Origin: an uncultured Actinomycetes bacterium
GTDB lineage: Bacteria; Actinomycetota; Thermoleophilia; Solirubrobacterales; Solirubrobacteraceae
Length of the DNA: 64,000 nucleotides
NCBI GenBank assembly: GCA_963795505.1
Contig: CAWCIB010000002.1
Location: 7,480 to 71,479, forward strand
Direction of reading: 5' to 3'
Shown here: one piece after another, positions 1,006-38,403 of the stretch
How positions within the stretch are numbered: position 1 is the stretch's first letter
Layout: every line of letters begins with the position of its first letter
The notes under the pieces: model-generated
Seen by the model: the letters and a program-made list of their open reading frames with translations, nothing else
Databases searched by the model: none
Told to the model about the DNA's origin: nothing
Made by a program: the position numbers and the translations under genes

Positions 1006-1458
1006 CTAATCGATTATCGGAGCTGCCGCAGCCTCCTCGACGCCGAGGGCGGCCATCTGCTCGCACGCACGCGCGACCTTCTGGCTGTCCTCGTACGCGT
1101 GGAAGTAGGCGACACGTCCGTTCCGGATCCTGAACACGTGGGTTCCCGTGTTGACGTACGGCTCGCCAGCCGCCGGCGTGACGTGGCCGATCCACTCGGC
1201 TGCGCCCCAAATGTCCCATGGAGGTCCGGAGGAGATCACGCGCCCGACCTCAAAGTGCATCTGCGGGCAGAGCCGGAACAGCCGCTCGAACCACCGCTCG
1301 ACGGCCTCGCGGCTGTGCCGCTGCCCACCGAGCGCAGAGTCGCCGGCGAACACGTGGTGGACGTCGGGAGCCAGCTGGGCGACCACCGCCTTGTAGTCCC
1401 CGGCGCTCAGGCGCGCGAAGTTCGACTCCACCCTTCGCCGGACCAGGGCTCGATACAC
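1006..1458 (-). CDS. SnoaL-like / NTF2-family protein
   Basis: Pattern LAPDVHHVFAGDSALGGQRHSREAVERWFERL...HVFRIRNGRVAYFHAYED; TATGGT 6 nt upstream of the GTG start. Confidence 0.8.
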   Translation of the reverse strand: MYRALVRRRVESNFARLSAGDYKAVVAQLAPDVHHVFAGDSALGGQRHSREAVERWFERLFRLCPQMHFEVGRVISSGPPWDIWGAAEWIGHVTPAAGEPYVNTGTHVFRIRNGRVAYFHAYEDSQKVARACEQMAALGVEEAAAAPIID

Positions 1459-1623
1459 GCCGCGACCATATCTGAGCCGATCGACCCCCGTTCTGCTTTG
1501 CGCTAGCGACGAGCATCGCGAGCGAGCTCGCGGCCGTCCGCGACGCTGTTGGCTAGCGACGCCGCCTAGGTACTGCCGCCGGCCGCGCGGCCACGCACCT
1601 GGACGCGGCCGCGCGATCTCGCC

Positions 1624-2238
1624 CTAGCCGTACAACTCGATGAAGAACGCAAGCGGCGCGGGACTGCCGCTGGTATTGACCGTTTCCACCGAGGCCTGGG
1701 TATTCGCCGGACACGCGCCTACAGCTTGGGGCACGAACAGGCCCTCCCCGGGCGTCAGGCCCCCGAGGTCGGGCGTTACCTGGGCGCCCGTGGGCGTGAA
1801 CGGGAGCCCGCTGAAGCAATAGATGTTGCTAGAGCCACCGACGACGGTAACCGAGCCCACATTCTTGGAGTCCGCCTGATTGATCACCCCCGTCGTGCTG
1901 ACCCGCGCGAATGCGACGGGCTGGGCACTCCCGGCCGTGGCTGCGCTTGCCGCGCTGGCGGCACTCCCCGCGCTCGTGGCGTACGTTGCGCTTGCCGCGC
2001 TGCCGGCACTCGTCGCGCTCGTGGCATGCGTTGCGTTGACCGCATTGGTGGCGTTCGCGATCGTCGCGTTCTTGTTGAGCTTCTTCGTCGTCACCGCACC
2101 GTTCTTTAACCGCTTTGTCCCGACGCTGTTCGTCGGGAGCTTGAACGCCGCATATCCGGTGCCGCCCATCGCGATCAGCAGTGCGATGGTCGCAATGATC
2201 AGCGCCGGGCTGGGTCGCCGGGGCCTGAACCTGGTCAT
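1624..2238 (-). CDS. Exported protein with A-x-x tripeptide low-complexity stalk
   Basis: AGGAGG upstream of ATG 2238; signal-like RRPSPALIIATIALLIAMGGTGYAA; repeat ATNAVNATHATSATSAGSAAS... Confidence 0.7.
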   Translation of the reverse strand: MTRFRPRRPSPALIIATIALLIAMGGTGYAAFKLPTNSVGTKRLKNGAVTTKKLNKNATIANATNAVNATHATSATSAGSAASATYATSAGSAASAASAATAGSAQPVAFARVSTTGVINQADSKNVGSVTVVGGSSNIYCFSGLPFTPTGAQVTPDLGGLTPGEGLFVPQAVGACPANTQASVETVNTSGSPAPLAFFIELYG

Positions 2239-2659
2239 CGTGGTCCTCCTGTTGTTTGAGTCTGCTCGACGCGCCTGCACCCCCTAAATGATGATTCAAC
2301 CATCTAGTCGGGCTATCCGCTCAGGGTCAAGACGACAGCGGCCAAGACTCGCGAGGAGCGATACCCGCCGCGATGAACCACCCCGGGTCACAGCCCGGCG
2401 GCGGTTGCGAGACCGTCTTGCTCACGCCACCGTACTTCGCGCTGTTCCATCCGAATGCCGGGATCGCGCGGAAACCAGAAGCGAACGTCGGTCCGGTTAC
2501 AGTGCCCGTCTGATCGAAAGGTAGCTATCGCCAGAGAGGCGGGCCATGTTGCTAATGCGGGTGATGGCAATCGCGCGCGAGGCCACACGAAAAAAGTCAC
2601 AACTTCGAGGCTAGCTTTCAGATAGGGTCGGTGGATGGACCACAACAATGGAGGCGGCG

Positions 2660-2920
2660 ATGCATGCGGTGCTCGTGAATGTAAAGCTCTCGGATAACCC
2701 CGACCCCACGATTCTGCGCGAGCAGGTCGTGCCGCGGGTCAAGGAGCTTCCCGGCTTTGTGGCCGGCTATTGGACCCGAGGCGACGGGGTGGGACGATCG
2801 ATGGTCGTGTTTGATTCAGAGGAGAACGCGCAGGCCGCGTCCGACCTAGTGCCGTCGCTGATTCCTTCTGGAACCACCGTCGAGAGCAATGAGGTGAGCG
2901 AGGTAGTCGCACAGGCTTAG
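2660..2920 (+). CDS. Small dimeric alpha-beta barrel (ABM-like) hypothetical protein
   Basis: GGAGG before ATG 2660; VVPRVKELPGFVAGYW...GRSMVVFDSEENAQAA pattern. Confidence 0.7.
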   Translation: MHAVLVNVKLSDNPDPTILREQVVPRVKELPGFVAGYWTRGDGVGRSMVVFDSEENAQAASDLVPSLIPSGTTVESNEVSEVVAQA

Positions 2921-3082
2921 CGACGAGCAGTCGTGCTGGCCGCCCCCGTGGTCATCTCTGACAGATGCCCTGAAGCAACCCGCTGTCGTAATTGATCGAC
3001 GACCAGCACTCTGGAGATGTGTCTGGCTGGCGAATGCGTCGCCAACCGAGAGCGATCCGCTCGGAATGCTGACGCCTCCTGT

Positions 3083-7087: not shown

Positions 7088-7513
7088 CCCGGCCACCGCT
7101 CAGCTAAATGCGCCACCGCTCCCGTCTGGCGTCACGCGGGTTCCACTGTCGCTTGCCCGATCGCATTGCGTGAGAGCCGGTCTCACCTAGGCCGTTCGCC
7201 TCTTGCGGTACAGGGTGGCCGCATGATCCCGTCGCGTTGCGAGCGTGATTTTGTCGTCGGTTTGCGGGGGCCCAAGGACCGCGACTGCTCGTCGATGCCG
7301 CTCCCGGCAGCCCTTCTATGCGGAGGCATGCGTCGTATTGACACATGGATCCGCAAAGAACGGCGGACCCGGCGGGCCGAGCGCTCCACCCGCCGCGCGC
7401 GTCTCCCTTACCTCACCCGGCCCGGCGCTCGCAACCAACGGATAGCACAAGCCGCATGTGTCATTAGCTGCGAGGATTGTGCGCCCGAAGCAATCGCCCA
7501 AAGGAGGCTCCCT

Positions 7514-33347: not shown

Positions 33348-34013
33348 TTGAACGGCAGCGCCAAGCGCTTGGTCGGCGTCGTTGTCTGCACCGTAGTCGC
33401 AGCTGCGGCGATCGGCCTTTACATAGGGCTGTATCTGACAAACGTTCCCGGGTCGGTCGCCGCGACCACCGATGCTTCGGGCGCGCATCTGTACCTCGCC
33501 ACGGTCCCGGCCGCGGAAGCGTCAGATCCCCACAACACGTGGGTGTCGTTCTACGCAGTCGACGCGAATGCGGGCAACTGGCGCCACGACTCGACATACG
33601 TCGTCCCCGCGAACACGGTCCTGACCGTGACGATCTATCAGTACGACTCAGCGTCGGGGCTGCGTAACGAGTTCCTGAGCCAGGCCACCGGGACGCAGGG
33701 CGGGACGTTCGCGCTCGACGGCAAGGCGGTGCCCGACATCGATCCGACGCAGGCCGCGCACGGGTTCGCGGTCCCGCAGTGGGGTCTCTCGGTCCCGCTC
33801 TACGGCGTCTCGACAAGCGCCAAGAATCCTTGTAGTCAGGCGCCCTGCTCGCTGAGCAACGACCATCACACGATCACGTTCACGATCAGGACCCCGGGCA
33901 AGGGCTTGTATCGCTGGCAGTGCATCGTGCCGTGCGCCGCGGGCTTCATCCAGGGCTATGGAGGGCCGATGCAGACGGTCGGCTATATGGGCGGCTTCTT
34001 CAAGGTCGTATGA
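33348..34013 (+). CDS. Membrane-anchored cupredoxin-like protein with H...C-x3-C...M-x5-M motif
   Basis: TTG start after GGAG; N-terminal TM; AAHGFAVP and TFTIRTPGKGLYRWQCIVPCAAG...GPMQTVGYMGGFFKVV C-terminus; stop overlaps the subunit II start. Confidence 0.7.
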   Translation: MNGSAKRLVGVVVCTVVAAAAIGLYIGLYLTNVPGSVAATTDASGAHLYLATVPAAEASDPHNTWVSFYAVDANAGNWRHDSTYVVPANTVLTVTIYQYDSASGLRNEFLSQATGTQGGTFALDGKAVPDIDPTQAAHGFAVPQWGLSVPLYGVSTSAKNPCSQAPCSLSNDHHTITFTIRTPGKGLYRWQCIVPCAAGFIQGYGGPMQTVGYMGGFFKVV

Positions 34014-34855
34014 CAGACCAGCGGCCCCACTGGCGAAATGTCGTGTTGCTGTGGCTGCTGGCCAACGTGATCATGCTGCCGATCGTCGTGTTCGTGCTCG
34101 GCCCCGGGCTACCGCCGGGCAACGGGACGGTCGAGTCTCACGGGCAGGTTGTCGACAACACCGTGCTGCTGACAATGGCGACGCCGTTCGCGCTGGCGGT
34201 GCTCGTCTACTTTGCGTACGCGATCTGGGCGTTCCGTGAGCGTGAGCCAGATGTTTACGTGGACGGACCGGCGGTCCGCGGCCACTCCGGTGTGCAGTTC
34301 TGGTGGCTGATGATCACGACGACGACGGTGCTCATTCTCGCCGCCTACGGTTCTGTCAGGCTGCTGGCCGATGGCTCCGGGGGCGGCCAGGGCCCGAATC
34401 CGATCGGCGTGCCGGCGGCGGCCAAGACCCATGCCCCGCTCCAGGTCCAGGTGATCGGCCAGCAGTGGTTCTTCACCTATCGCTTCCCGGGCTACGGCGG
34501 TGTAGAAACGCGCGACCTCGAGCTCCCGACCGGCACCACGGTCGAGTTCCACGTCACGTCGCTTGACGTCATCCACTCCTTCTGGGCCTACCAGCTCGGC
34601 GTCAAGGCCGACGCCAACCCAGGCATCGACAACATCGCTTACGTGACGACGCGCGGCCCGCTGACGTTCAACGTGCGCTGCGCCGAGCTGTGCGGCGTCT
34701 GGCACGGCTACATGTTCAACTCGGGCGTCGTGGTGCCCAAGGCGCAGTTCGCCACCTGGATCGCACAACAGCAGCAGCAGAACGCCCCAGCGACCAAGAA
34801 CCTGCTGCCGTACTCGAAGCAGTACTTCCCGACCCCGTTGAGGAGGGCTGGATGA
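34010..34855 (+). CDS. coxB: Cytochrome c oxidase subunit II
   Basis: Two TM helices; DVIHSFW and CuA motif CAELCGVWHGYM. Confidence 0.95.
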   Translation: MTDQRPHWRNVVLLWLLANVIMLPIVVFVLGPGLPPGNGTVESHGQVVDNTVLLTMATPFALAVLVYFAYAIWAFREREPDVYVDGPAVRGHSGVQFWWLMITTTTVLILAAYGSVRLLADGSGGGQGPNPIGVPAAAKTHAPLQVQVIGQQWFFTYRFPGYGGVETRDLELPTGTTVEFHVTSLDVIHSFWAYQLGVKADANPGIDNIAYVTTRGPLTFNVRCAELCGVWHGYMFNSGVVVPKAQFATWIAQQQQQNAPATKNLLPYSKQYFPTPLRRAG

Positions 34856-36741
34856 GCACGATCGCCGCCTCTGTGCCGGCCCCGCGCGCGGGCTTCAGAC
34901 AGTTCTTCGGCTTCAACATGCTGACCGGGATCTTGCTCGGGATTGGCGGCTGGTTCCTGGGCTACTTCATCGGCACCCACCTCCACGGGGTCGGGCTGAA
35001 GTACTACACGGCCACGGCCGGCGAGAACGACATCGGGATCATGCTCGGCTACTTCCTCGGCGTGGTCGGCTTCCTCGTTGGCCTCGGGTTCGCGAACTAC
35101 CCGCTCAAGCGGATGCTGGGCCACCCTGCGAGCCTCGCCGAGCGCGAGGCGAAGGAGTTCGGCCTGCTGCGGTACTTCAGCTTGTCGACCGACCACAAGG
35201 TCGTCGCGAAGCAGTACATGGTCGGAATCGGGGTGTTCTTCTTCGTCGGTGGGCTGAACGCGATGCTGATCCGCTCAGAGCTCCTGCAGCCCAACGTGCA
35301 CGTGTTCGGCGCCAACCAGTACCTGACGCTGGTTGGGCTGCACGGCTCGATGATGATGGGGATCATGACCTCGGGGATCCTCGGCCCATTCGCGAACTGG
35401 CTCGTTCCCGTGATGATCGGCGCCCGGCGGATGGCGTTCCCGCGGATCGAGGCGCTCACGTTCTGGATCCTGATGGCCGGCGCGGTGATCCTGATCACGA
35501 CGATCTTCTTCGGGGGCTTCCAGACCGGCTGGACGGGCTATCAGCCGCTCGGCGACCAGGGCACCGCCGGCTACGACGCATACATCGGGTTCTTCTCGTG
35601 CGTCGGCATCTCGATGACGCTTTTCGGCTTCAATCTGGTGGCGACGATCATCACGATGCGGGCGCCCGGGATGACCTGGTCGCGACTGCCAATCTTCGTC
35701 TGGGCTACGTTCGCGACCGCCATCCTGATGATGCTGGCGGCGCCGATGCTCGTTTCCGCGCTGCTTATGGGGGCGATGGACCGCACCGCGCAGACCGCGT
35801 TCTACATCGCCGGTCAGGGCGGAAGCTCATATCTGTTCCAGAACTTATTCTGGGTATTCGGACATCCCGAGGTGTACATCCTGGCGTTGCCCGGCTTCGG
35901 GATCGTGCTGGAGCTGTTGCCCGTGTTCGCGCGCAAGCCGCTGTGGGGCTACCGGCTTGCGGTGGCCGGGTTGCTGGGCGTCAGCCTGCTGAGCTTCTTC
36001 GTCTGGCAGCACCATCTGTTCGTATCGGGCATCAACGCCGACCTGCGGCCGTTCTACATGCTCTCGACCGAGCTGATCTCGCTGCCGACGGGATTCATCT
36101 TCCTGTGCGCGATGGGAACACTGTGGCGCGGGCGAATACGTCTGACGGTGCCGATGCTGTTCTGCTTAGCGTGGGCGTTCAACTTCCTGTGGGGTGGGAT
36201 CTCGGGTGTCTTCAACTCCGACACCCCGAGCGACGTCACCACGCACGGGAGCTTCTTTGTGATGGCGCACTTCCACTACACGATCATGGGCGGGCTCGTG
36301 TTCGCGTTCTTCGCCGGGATCTACTACTGGGTACCCAAGATGTACGCCGTCAAGTTCAACGAGCGGCTGGCCAAACTGCACTTCTGGGTGATGTTCATCG
36401 CCTTTAACTGCACGTTCGCGCCGCTGTTCGCGCTCGGTTTCCTGGGCATGCCACGACGCGTTGTCACCTACCCGGTCAGCTTCCAAGCCCTCAACGACTG
36501 GGTGTCGGTGTCGGCGTACGTGCTCGGGAGCTCGATGCTGATCTTCCTGGTCAACGTGGTCTGGTCGGTAGTGCTCAAGCGCGAGCCGGCGGAGGAGAAC
36601 CCATGGCACGCCAAGTCGACCGAATGGCAGCTCCCGACACCGGTCCCGCTGCACGACTTTGACCGTATCCCACGATTCGAGCCAGACCCCTACCCATACG
36701 GGGTCGAGCCCGCGCCGGCGCTTGCGGGCGGGAGCGAGTAA
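34852..36741 (+). CDS. coxA: Heme-copper oxidase subunit I (A-family, two extra N-terminal TM helices)
   Basis: LHGSMM, GHPEVY, WQHHLF, AHFHY, GMPRR. Confidence 0.97.
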   Translation: MSTIAASVPAPRAGFRQFFGFNMLTGILLGIGGWFLGYFIGTHLHGVGLKYYTATAGENDIGIMLGYFLGVVGFLVGLGFANYPLKRMLGHPASLAEREAKEFGLLRYFSLSTDHKVVAKQYMVGIGVFFFVGGLNAMLIRSELLQPNVHVFGANQYLTLVGLHGSMMMGIMTSGILGPFANWLVPVMIGARRMAFPRIEALTFWILMAGAVILITTIFFGGFQTGWTGYQPLGDQGTAGYDAYIGFFSCVGISMTLFGFNLVATIITMRAPGMTWSRLPIFVWATFATAILMMLAAPMLVSALLMGAMDRTAQTAFYIAGQGGSSYLFQNLFWVFGHPEVYILALPGFGIVLELLPVFARKPLWGYRLAVAGLLGVSLLSFFVWQHHLFVSGINADLRPFYMLSTELISLPTGFIFLCAMGTLWRGRIRLTVPMLFCLAWAFNFLWGGISGVFNSDTPSDVTTHGSFFVMAHFHYTIMGGLVFAFFAGIYYWVPKMYAVKFNERLAKLHFWVMFIAFNCTFAPLFALGFLGMPRRVVTYPVSFQALNDWVSVSAYVLGSSMLIFLVNVVWSVVLKREPAEENPWHAKSTEWQLPTPVPLHDFDRIPRFEPDPYPYGVEPAPALAGGSE

Positions 36742-36744
36742 ACC

Positions 36745-37371
36745 ATGGAAGCATCAGCCTCAGCCCCCGCCTCCTCCGCAGTCGAGACCGAGCCACTCGA
36801 GTGGCAGCCGCGCGCGGTCTGGCTCTCCGGGCGGTTGCTGTGCGGCTCGATCTCGTTCTTCTTCGCCTCGTTCCTGTTCGCCTACTTCTATCTCCAGGCG
36901 CTCGATGAAAATCACAACTGGAAGATCGGTGCCGTGCACCCGTCGAAGGGTCTCGGCGTCGCGATCATGGCGCTGTTCCTGTTCGGGGCGATCGTCTACC
37001 GGATGTCTGTCAGCCGTCCCGAGGTCGACGCGGTGGCCGCCGGCGCGATCGCAGTCATCTTTGCGCTGATCGCGATCGGGCTCCAGTTCTACGAGTACAC
37101 GACGCTCGGCTTCGGCGCCGCTTCAGGCGGCTACGCGGCGGTCTTCTACGGCTGGACGTCGCTGTATGCGATCGTCGGCCTGATGGGCGCCTACTGGATC
37201 GAAATCCAGGTAGCCAGTCTGTGGCGCATGCGGCGTGAGGGCCCGCGGGACACCGACATCCCCGCCGGCGAGCAAGAGCTCATCCGGGCGGGCATCGAGT
37301 CGTCCTCGTTCTACTGGGCGTATTTCGTCGCGATCGGCGTGCTCGCCTACATCGTCCTCTACATCGTCTAA
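36745..37371 (+). CDS. Short cytochrome c oxidase subunit III-like protein
   Basis: FFASFLFAYFY, LQFYEY..LGF.....GYAAVFYGWT, FYWAY; position after subunit I. Confidence 0.8.
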   Translation: MEASASAPASSAVETEPLEWQPRAVWLSGRLLCGSISFFFASFLFAYFYLQALDENHNWKIGAVHPSKGLGVAIMALFLFGAIVYRMSVSRPEVDAVAAGAIAVIFALIAIGLQFYEYTTLGFGAASGGYAAVFYGWTSLYAIVGLMGAYWIEIQVASLWRMRREGPRDTDIPAGEQELIRAGIESSSFYWAYFVAIGVLAYIVLYIV

Positions 37372-37376
37372 GAGCG

Positions 37377-38189
37377 ATGCTCTCCCGCTGGTCGCTCGAT
37401 CCGGGTCTCGTCTACGTCGTGATCTCGGCGGTGTTGTATGCGCTCGGCGCGCGCGGCCGCTTGAGGCCCAAGCCGCTCGAGGCGGTCTCGTTCTATGCCG
37501 GGCTTGTGGCGATCGTGGTCGCGCTCGACTCACCGATCGACTCCTATGCAGATCAGCTGTTCTGGGTCCACATGCTCCAGCACATACTGCTGCTGACGAT
37601 CGCGCCTCCGCTGATCCTGCTCGGGCGTCCGTGGCCGCGGATGTGGCGAGCGCTGCCGCTCGGCCCTCGCACGTCGCTGGCACGGACCGTTGCACACGCG
37701 CGCTGGGCGGCGCCGCTCCGCGGGCTCTCGCACCCCATTCCGGCGTGGATCCTGTTCAACGCGACCGTCATCGGCTGGCACATTCCGGCCGCCTACGACG
37801 CGACGCTCACCAACGGCGCCGTCCATGCCGTCGAGCACGCGATGTTCTTCTTCGCGGGGCTCCTGTTCTGGGCACGCGTGATCGATCCTGGCCCGTTGCG
37901 CCCCAGGCTCGTGTGGCCGGTGCGGGTCGCATACGCGGTCGGCGCGATGGTCGTGGGCTGGGTGCTCGCGATCACGCTGGTCGTGGTGCCCCACGCGGTC
38001 TACGGCTACTACGCTGCGCTTCAGACGCGCCCCGGCGGTATCAGCGCGGTCACCGACCAGCAGCTGGCCGCCGGCATGATGTGGGTCCCCGGATCGCTCT
38101 CATACACGATTACTTTCCTGATCGGCTTCTACCGCTGGCTCGAACCGGATCATGCGGGTAGCGGGCCGCGGCCTGCAGTCACTACATGA
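37377..38189 (+). CDS. ctaG: Caa3-type CtaG cytochrome oxidase assembly protein
   Basis: LFWVHMLQHILLL.IAPPLILLG, WHIPAAYD, HAVEH...GLLFW, DQQLAAGMMW. Confidence 0.9.
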   Translation: MLSRWSLDPGLVYVVISAVLYALGARGRLRPKPLEAVSFYAGLVAIVVALDSPIDSYADQLFWVHMLQHILLLTIAPPLILLGRPWPRMWRALPLGPRTSLARTVAHARWAAPLRGLSHPIPAWILFNATVIGWHIPAAYDATLTNGAVHAVEHAMFFFAGLLFWARVIDPGPLRPRLVWPVRVAYAVGAMVVGWVLAITLVVVPHAVYGYYAALQTRPGGISAVTDQQLAAGMMWVPGSLSYTITFLIGFYRWLEPDHAGSGPRPAVTT

Positions 38190-38199
38190 GGAGGAAAAT

Positions 38200-38403
38200 G
38201 TGCCAATGATCCCAATCGCAGCCTTCCTCGCCGGCTCACTTCTGACGCTGCTGCTGCCCACTGGCATGCTGATTGCGCTCGCTATCTGGTACACGGTCAC
38301 GGTGCGTCGTGCGCCGGAGGCGGCGGATCTGCCGCAGGATGAGCCGGTTCTCGAAAGCCCCCTGGTCGACAGCGGCTCGGGGACTCCGCGCGGCCAGGAC
38401 TGA
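38200..38403 (+). CDS. Small single-TM protein, possible oxidase accessory subunit
   Basis: GAGGAGG RBS; hydrophobic N-terminal helix then acidic tail; 10 nt after ctaG. Confidence 0.65.
   Translation: MPMIPIAAFLAGSLLTLLLPTGMLIALAIWYTVTVRRAPEAADLPQDEPVLESPLVDSGSGTPRGQD

Follow-up and report, generated by a model that had tools for sequence, protein, structure and literature searches.

The roles of D132, N139 and K362 (Rhodobacter sphaeroides numbering) form the core of the debate on proton pumping by A-type oxidases, and so far they have been probed almost only by engineered mutants. In R. sphaeroides, the D132N change nearly abolishes both activity and pumping and N139D uncouples, yet the D132N/N139D double mutant regains full pumping; the standard example of an uncoupling change in R. 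sphaeroides, Paracoccus denitrificans and yeast is a carboxylate placed at N139 (PMC7196763). Fast proton uptake also returns without an acid in the D132N/N139T mutant, and the D135N form of Escherichia coli bo3 is rescued by Asp at 139 or 142 (PMC3840923). Among natural enzymes, Degli Esposti et al. (2021; PMC8239418 Tables S1 and S3; preprint 10.1101/2020.03.01.968255) tabulate K-channel subclades of the A family, many of which have K354 (P. denitrificans numbering) and COX2 E78 substituted and are classed as modified, hybrid or KC-type K-channels, and their set includes “2TM” clades tied to Caa3_CtaG and rus-operon oxidases. The present analysis concerns an oxidase encoded in a stretch of 64,000 nucleotides, here called the window (positions 7,480 to 71,479 of contig CAWCIB010000002.1, assembly GCA_963795505.1), from an uncultured member of the Solirubrobacteraceae, in which the third gene of a five-gene cassette encodes a subunit I of 629 amino acids (34852..36741, on the plus strand, as are all features of the cassette). 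In this natural and strongly conserved enzyme, Arg stands in for the Asp at the mouth of the D channel, the Asn gate carries a carboxylate or a hydroxyl, and both the K-channel set and the Mg-site Asp have been lost. It is probably, with moderate confidence, a working O2 reductase of the A family (aa3-like and CuA-dependent) in an accessory role, with the D-channel mouth remodelled and the K region free of Lys. It belongs to the Lys-less A-family lineage with two extra N-terminal transmembrane (TM) helices and an operon-borne CtaG, the same lineage as the rus-operon oxidase, and what appears to be new is the Arg pair, the Asn-gate Glu and the Mg-site HG within that known lineage. The combined loss of Asp and Lys is not unique to the window gene, and the K-loss layer is already tabulated (PMC8239418). 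The clade is in this sense a natural test of the D/K-channel model, not a new kind of enzyme.

The best sequence match of solved structure is Mycobacterium smegmatis CtaD (PDB 6adq, from the bcc-aa3 supercomplex; E 2.5e-118, about 41% identity), which, in contrast to the window protein, carries the canonical D, N, K and S in its channels, lacks the N-terminal 2-TM extension and is served by QcrC. The HMMER alignment of subunit I to this protein (6adq_F) is gapless through all three motifs, pairing igaRRmafprIEa with igaPDvafprLNa, ptgfIfl with ptgiKff and tHGsffvmahfhy with vtDsyfviahfhy (subunit I first in each pair), and in it R193, I416 and G466 fall opposite the D-channel Asp, the K-channel Lys and the Mg-site Asp, respectively. 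Subunit I reads GA-R192-R193-M for GAPDM (R192-R193, 35425..35430, codons CGG CGG), PRI-E200 for PRxN (E200, 35449..35451), PTGF-I416 for PTGxK and H465-G466 for HD, the last with the Mg/Mn-site His kept and the Asp lost (36244..36249). A sequence-only reading of this DNA had proposed that the entry Asp is replaced by Arg at residue 193 (35428-35430), the K-channel Lys by Ile at residue 416 (36097-36099) and the Mg-site HD by HG, with all six His ligands, the cross-linking Tyr and the Glu of GHPEVY kept. These claims are borne out by the codons (CGG and ATC), by the gapless alignment and by conservation: H164, H338, H387, H388, H473, H475, E340, Y342 and the HG pair do not vary in 120 homologs. 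E340 and Y342 (E340-V-Y342 of GHPEVY, 35869..35877) are the counterparts of E286, the Glu at the end of the D channel, and of Y288, the cross-linking Tyr. The helix VI Glu of GHPEVY, rather than a YS motif, marks the protein as A1-type, and its nearest deeper branches are A2-type with YSHPAVY.

The fold of subunit I is predicted to be that of an A-family 12-TM subunit I. An AlphaFold2 model (mean predicted local distance difference test score, pLDDT, 82; predicted template modelling score, pTM, 0.87) was matched by Foldseek to subunit I of P. denitrificans (7ate) and R. sphaeroides (1m56) with a probability of 1.00 and a root-mean-square deviation of 2.1 A. The model has 14 predicted TM helices, of which two, at residues 23-42 and 60-78, are extra and N-terminal. 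Two further residues peculiar to the clade were noted near the active site. N331 (35842-35844) stands in place of the near-universal His of QHLFWFFGH and adjoins the active site, and Q386 (36007-36009) turns WAHH into WQHH directly ahead of the CuB ligands; both are found in 120/120 homologs.

Conservation was counted in 120 cluster representatives at 78-88% identity and in the best 80 of the 210 relatives found by a scan of one genome per species, these 80 all being soil metagenome-assembled genomes labelled Solirubrobacterales, Solirubrobacteraceae or Actinomycetes/Actinomycetota. The window oxidase clade is present in at least 80 soil species. Since the Arg pair at 192-193 (120/120 representatives and 80/80 species loci), E407 and HG (each 120/120) and E200 (117/120) are so widely kept, and position 416 is I, T or V and never K, the channel substitutions cannot be put down to chance; S410 is likewise found in 120/120 representatives. 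It is hardly credible in this light that the gene is a decaying or non-catalytic paralog in which the odd residues are the noise of relaxed selection. Such a history could be read into its PF00115 score (418 bits, E 1e-123), the lowest of the four paralogs in the window genome (the others reach 490-550 bits), and into the fact that subunit I, while it passes the Pfam PF00115 cut-off, falls under every curated NCBIfam equivalog cut-off (545.9 bits against TIGR02891, the CtaD_CoxA equivalog, with a cut-off of 670.75). However, the variant residues are invariant across the 120 clusters and 80 species, the metal ligands are intact, the subunit I gene has no internal stop in any relative found, and the operon is conserved and translationally coupled. 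A pseudogene or artefact is ruled out by the conservation, and the invariant ligands, Tyr and Glu, the uninterrupted reading frames, the fixed substitutions and the conserved cassette argue for a working enzyme. The same residues bear on whether that enzyme reduces O2. Several heme-copper oxidase families have turned into nitric oxide (NO) reductases with altered channels, one of them with a conserved Glu at a novel place, and a change to NO reduction or another chemistry could make O2-type proton channels dispensable. However, those NO reductase families lack the cross-linked Tyr or have a changed CuB ligand (PMC11214002), whereas the window clade keeps the Tyr, CuA and each of the three CuB His without exception, and such a change of chemistry is considered improbable.

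When subunit I is compared with the D-pathway residue list of PMC10341450, T113 (T24), Y122 (Y33), N182 (N121; 35395..35397), S254 (S200), N261 (N207; 35632..35634, invariant in the 120-homolog alignment) and E340 (E286) are kept, and the canonical set is departed from at R193 (D132), E200 (N139, the “asparagine gate”) and M255 (S201). The body of the D pathway is retained and the mouth alone rebuilt, the surface Asp giving way to the basic pair R192/R193 and a carboxylate, E200, appearing deeper in the pathway by some one and a half turns of the helix. In the proposed mechanism this candidate relocated carboxylate takes up protons and could feed E340 from the Asn-gate position, and the enzyme may still pump. 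The positions of R193, E200, E407, N444 and T477 assumed here come only from the alignment, helix limits and helical periodicity. The natural enzyme resembles the R. sphaeroides and E. coli mutants in that the surface Asp is gone and the 139 position carries E200 (S200 in a sub-clade). It differs from them in having Arg, not Asn, at 132 and Glu, not Asp, at 139, and in having lost the K-channel Lys, which all of the mutants keep. The sequence-only reading had further suggested either that the proton pathways are re-routed, with the Glu of RIEA and of STEL as candidates, or that the oxidase pumps poorly, and had named equivalent charged residues at shifted positions, restoring the canonical channels, as evidence against its claim. 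For the D channel, the re-routing is supported, as E200 occupies the N139 site and has the mutants as a precedent; as a charge at a shifted position, E200 also goes part of the way towards that counter-evidence.

The residue at position 200 varies among close species, with Glu in 58 and Ser in 22 of the 80 loci. E200 occurs together with N or Q at position 182 in about three quarters of close species, the window species included, and position 182 shifts to T or Q in sub-clades, co-varying with position 200. The only sub-clade-specific columns are 176, 182, 197, 200, 215 and 267, all of them at the channel mouth, and this concentration points to functional tuning rather than drift. In the deepest branches residues 192-193 read KK or RQ, and one deep-branching locus, L014, has Q200 paired with Asp at the N207 position (261). 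A rule by which one carboxylate is always kept at the mouth was considered and rejected, as L014 (Q200/D261) fits it but the S200/T182/S197 loci gain no new acid. The N-terminal linker acids E97, E99 and E101 were likewise rejected as clade-specific partners of the Arg pair, similar linkers being present in sister clades that keep D132. The loci with S200/T182/S197 are L034, L036-L039, L042-L045, L048, L051, L052, L054-L056, L058, L059, L061, L063, L065 and L068, and this sub-clade is about 80% identical to the window oxidase. Nine other loci carry Q182 with E200.

In the K region, T359 alone (T413) is kept of the canonical set of K362, T359, S299, S365 and subunit II E101. L353 (35908..35910) replaces S299, I416 and C419 (both within 36088..36108, with T413) replace K362 and S365, and a Gln in subunit II (34295-34297) replaces the K-channel entry Glu corresponding to R. 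sphaeroides E101. This Gln lies in a motif, VQFWW, that is kept across the clade, whereas Lys-retaining paralogs read LEIGW there. The Lys-less clade has gained E407 and S410 in TM8 (E407-L-I-S410, 36070..36081, above the lost Lys), S381 in TM7, N444 in TM9 (36181..36183, canonically Leu or Met; 120/120 and fixed in the Lys-less clade) and T477 in TM10 (36280..36282, canonically Val, two residues past the heme a ligand H475 and co-occurring with E407 and N444). E407 is the STEL glutamate and lies nine residues ahead of I416. In a molecular dynamics study, the R. sphaeroides residues A356 and G327, which correspond to S410 and S381, bound the K-channel volume (PMC10341450). From the helix limits, N444 may lie about as deep in the membrane as the lost Lys did. 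By the four replacements named above the canonical K path is dismantled, and a Lys-free polar set of E407, S410, T413, S381, N444 and T477 would surround the N-side edge of heme a3, where it may act as a substitute path, either a ladder or a local relay, for the protons of the reductive phase. Alternatively, all proton delivery could be left to the D pathway. For this region the proposed re-routing is plausible only: E407 is invariant in the Lys-less bacterial clade, which makes it a plausible candidate, and no relocated Lys was found in the K region. It is possible, if doubtful, that a single D pathway, gated by the Arg pair and a buried Glu or hydroxyl, carries all protons, and that E407, N444 and T477 form a relay by heme a3. 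In that case heme-copper oxidases would have a third natural way of delivering protons, and the enzyme might be tuned to a high-potential donor from the cupredoxin-like partner encoded in the cassette, with pumping stoichiometry altered or zero.

The order of these changes was examined in a quick IQ-TREE maximum-likelihood search on 79 diverse COX1 sequences, with support from the Shimodaira-Hasegawa-like approximate likelihood ratio test (SH-aLRT) and without bootstrap. A 19-row clade (SH-aLRT 98) has lost the Lys and has E407, S410, N444 and T477 as fixed residues; it includes P0135, which represents the 50%-identity cluster that holds Acidiferrobacter WP_065972084.1. Nested in it is a 13-row clade (SH-aLRT 100) with HG and E340. 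The innermost clade, of 11 rows (SH-aLRT 99), combines Glu at 200 with a basic residue at 193, as RR, KK or RQ. Its closest sisters, P0124 and P0126, share HG and keep the canonical Asp and Asn, and the A2-type Lys-less relatives keep the Mg-site Asp. An old layer comprises the disappearance of K362, S299 and subunit II E101 from the K channel together with the gain of E407, S410, N444 and T477; the D132-to-Arg and N139-to-Glu changes form a younger one, found mainly in Solirubrobacterales and placed after the loss of Lys because P0124 and P0126 retain both residues. An archaeal Lys-less group from Marsarchaeota/Hydrothermarchaeota (P0185, P0209 and P0219) is separate from the bacterial clade. 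Its COX1 proteins have Thr-Glu at 406-407 in 3 of 6 representatives, with the Mg-site pair reading Arg-Gly or Asn-Gly, and this group suggests that the Glu may recur upon Lys loss.

Several observations weigh against a pumping oxidase with a remodelled D mouth and a Lys-free K region. A carboxylate at the Asn gate is also the classic uncoupling mutation, and the capture of protons should be hampered by a pair of Arg at the entrance. In 21-22 of the 80 close species (about a quarter), S200/T182/S197 occur with the Arg pair and without a mouth carboxylate; on this evidence the E200 carboxylate is not obligatory, and the Arg pair, not E200, is the invariant feature. Among other possible roles, the pair may tune the pKa of E200, act as a lid or bind an anionic lipid or a fatty acid. 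As for the K region, helical periodicity puts E407 about 180 degrees from position 416, and it may therefore face TM9 rather than the channel lumen. In addition, the association of K loss with E407 rests on 2-3 independent events: an independent-pairs test gave 5 pairs, of which 2-3 were concordant and 0 opposite (sign test p 0.25-0.5), and was powerless, as was the corresponding test of D loss against an acid at position 200. The first of these points leads to a different view, in which the enzyme is a non-pumping (uncoupled) oxidase that draws on cytoplasmic protons alone to reduce O2 and serves as an O2 scavenger, as a redox valve or, where the cupredoxin-like partner supplies a high-potential donor, as the terminal oxidase. 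The loss of the K-channel set and of the Mg-site Asp is consistent with such a role, and the carboxylate at the N139 position is the kind of change by which uncoupling is usually produced (PMC7196763). However, the D132N/N139D mutant pumps normally, so that a Glu at 139 need not uncouple where D132 is absent (PMC7196763), and E340, the branching Glu that A1 oxidases require in order to pump, is strictly kept although related A2-type branches lack this Glu. An uncoupled oxidase is on present evidence unlikely, though it is the alternative to which the most weight is given, and evidence from the lineage and from the cassette bears on it further.

The window oxidase carries the marks of the Lys-less “2TM/CtaG” lineage, namely the two extra TM helices, I416 with the subunit II Gln, CtaG and its grouping in the tree. 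With the “2TM” subclades of PMC8239418 it has in common the extra N-terminal TM helices, Caa3_CtaG, HPEVY, the exchange of K354 for Ile, Val or Leu and the substituted COX2 E78, and in the column scheme of that study the protein reads Y-L-I-T-C-E-G-A-G-S, with Gln in COX2, which corresponds to the “modified” class. The “Solirubrobacterales” subclade of the same authors is an A2-type paralog with an intact Lys and not the window gene. Their papers describe the D channel as essentially conserved, whereas in the window clade the entry Asp is Arg and N139 is Glu. The COX1 of the rus operon of Acidiferrobacter thiooxydans (WP_065972084.1; 39% identity to subunit I over 568 amino acids by BLASTP) shares with the window protein the Lys-less clade (SH-aLRT 98), two extra N-terminal TM helices (the N-termini align), a hydrophobic residue at K362, E407, S410, N444 and T477, and GHPEVY. 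It too lacks D132, reading N121Y, D132T and N139L; however, it has neither the basic pair nor a Glu at 139, and its Mg site is HN and not HG. That published description holds neither for the window clade nor, by the alignment, for the Acidiferrobacter accession listed; contrary to the literature, some members of the Lys-less lineage have an altered D channel. The hosts also differ. The rus-operon (CoxBACD aa3) oxidases are found in acidophilic iron oxidisers, whereas the hosts of the window oxidase are neutral-soil actinobacteria, and the lineage is abundant in neutral soils. An “acidophile” oxidase lineage is thereby extended to neutral-soil Solirubrobacterales, which weakens the view of the channel changes as adaptations to acid. 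The membership of a clade shared with an Acidiferrobacter enzyme that is itself without D132, N139 and N121 could nevertheless be taken to favour an uncoupled oxidase, as could the analogy with acidophile rus-type oxidases, which operate on a small driving force. Ferguson and Ingledew reportedly discussed the non-canonical channels of the Acidithiobacillus oxidase in 2008 with regard to such a small driving force.

The five-gene cassette around subunit I bears on the question of the electron donor. Its order is a cupredoxin-like gene, subunit II, subunit I, a subunit III-like gene and CtaG; the cassette is conserved in 79-80 of the 80 loci, and the genes that flank the cassette are not common to them. 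The first three genes overlap by ATGA and are tightly packed and translationally coupled. The first gene encodes a cupredoxin-like, membrane-anchored protein (about 33348..34013) whose stop overlaps the start of subunit II. This open reading frame (ORF) has no Pfam or NCBIfam match, and it lies directly upstream of subunit II in 79/80 related loci (tblastn) and also in L006-L015. Subunit II (34010..34855; PF00116, E 1.3e-15) is of the CuA type without a cytochrome c domain, has its CuA ligands H..CAELCGVWHGYM (H..CxELCGxxHxxM) intact, and scores 120 bits against TIGR02866, under the cut-off of 147.7. Downstream of subunit I lie a short subunit III-like membrane protein of 208 amino acids (36745..37371; PF00510, E 0.003 and 17.9 bits, below the gathering score), present in 80/80 loci, and a CtaG assembly factor of the Caa3 type (37377..38189; PF09678, E 6.9e-57), present in 79/80. 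The Acidiferrobacter rus-type operon (CP080624.1, with COX1 at L102:6001-7887) consists of cyc2-like, cyc1, an unannotated ORF, COX2, COX1, COX3-like, UbiA, rusticyanin-like and CtaG genes. Both loci thus have an unannotated or cupredoxin-like ORF directly upstream of COX2, a short COX3-like gene after COX1, and Caa3_CtaG. The cupredoxin-like gene is conserved at the AcoP position of the rus operon, which would suit a terminal oxidase served by a high-potential donor and so an uncoupled enzyme. However, the similarity of its product to the Acidiferrobacter ORF at that position is not significant (BLASTP E 0.069), and no homologs of cyc2, cyc1 or rusticyanin occur in the conserved Solirubrobacterales cassette (80 loci; the rest of the genome was not searched for them). 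The subunit III-like protein and its Acidiferrobacter counterpart also show no significant similarity (BLASTP E 0.074). After CtaG, an ORF at 38152-38403 encodes a peptide of 83 amino acids with a single TM helix; it is present in only 21/80 related loci and may be a small accessory subunit or no gene.

The preferred reading of a functional oxidase with a remodelled D mouth also takes it to be accessory, and the genome setting is consistent with this. The window genome has four COX1 paralogs, the window gene and L001, L002 and L003, and it encodes heme A synthase. L001 is a canonical A1 aa3. L002 (G000:C10:19177-23511) is an A2-type (YSHPAVY) caa3 with a similar 2-TM N-terminal extension and an intact Lys, and is thereby like the published “Solirubrobacterales” subclade. 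L003 (G000:C8:334103-338443; COX1 ORF 1048-2949, minus strand) is a caa3 with an adjoining subunit II that carries a cytochrome c domain. The ortholog of the window gene is patchy in distribution: of 121 genomes sampled from the family, 8 carry it, and these span 4 of 51 genera, while a phylum-wide sample of 401 genomes has it in 12. A first-look search gave three to six COX1-like candidates in each carrier. The window oxidase appears to sit alongside other COX1-like genes and looks like an accessory oxidase. This status, with the accompanying paralogs and the patchy occurrence in the family, is also what might be expected of an oxidase that does not pump. A literature search on Solirubrobacterales or Thermoleophilia oxidases and on natural D132 variants returned nothing specific. 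Among the paralogs, the Mg-site pair of L002 reads SQ. L003 reads IPSAIQLF, with Gln for the K-channel Lys and Ser-Ala for Thr-Gly, and groups with a large clade of proteins of roughly 680-860 amino acids that have Gln (in one case His and in one Ala) at the Lys position, many of which carry Glu at the N207 position and Ile or Met at the N121 position.

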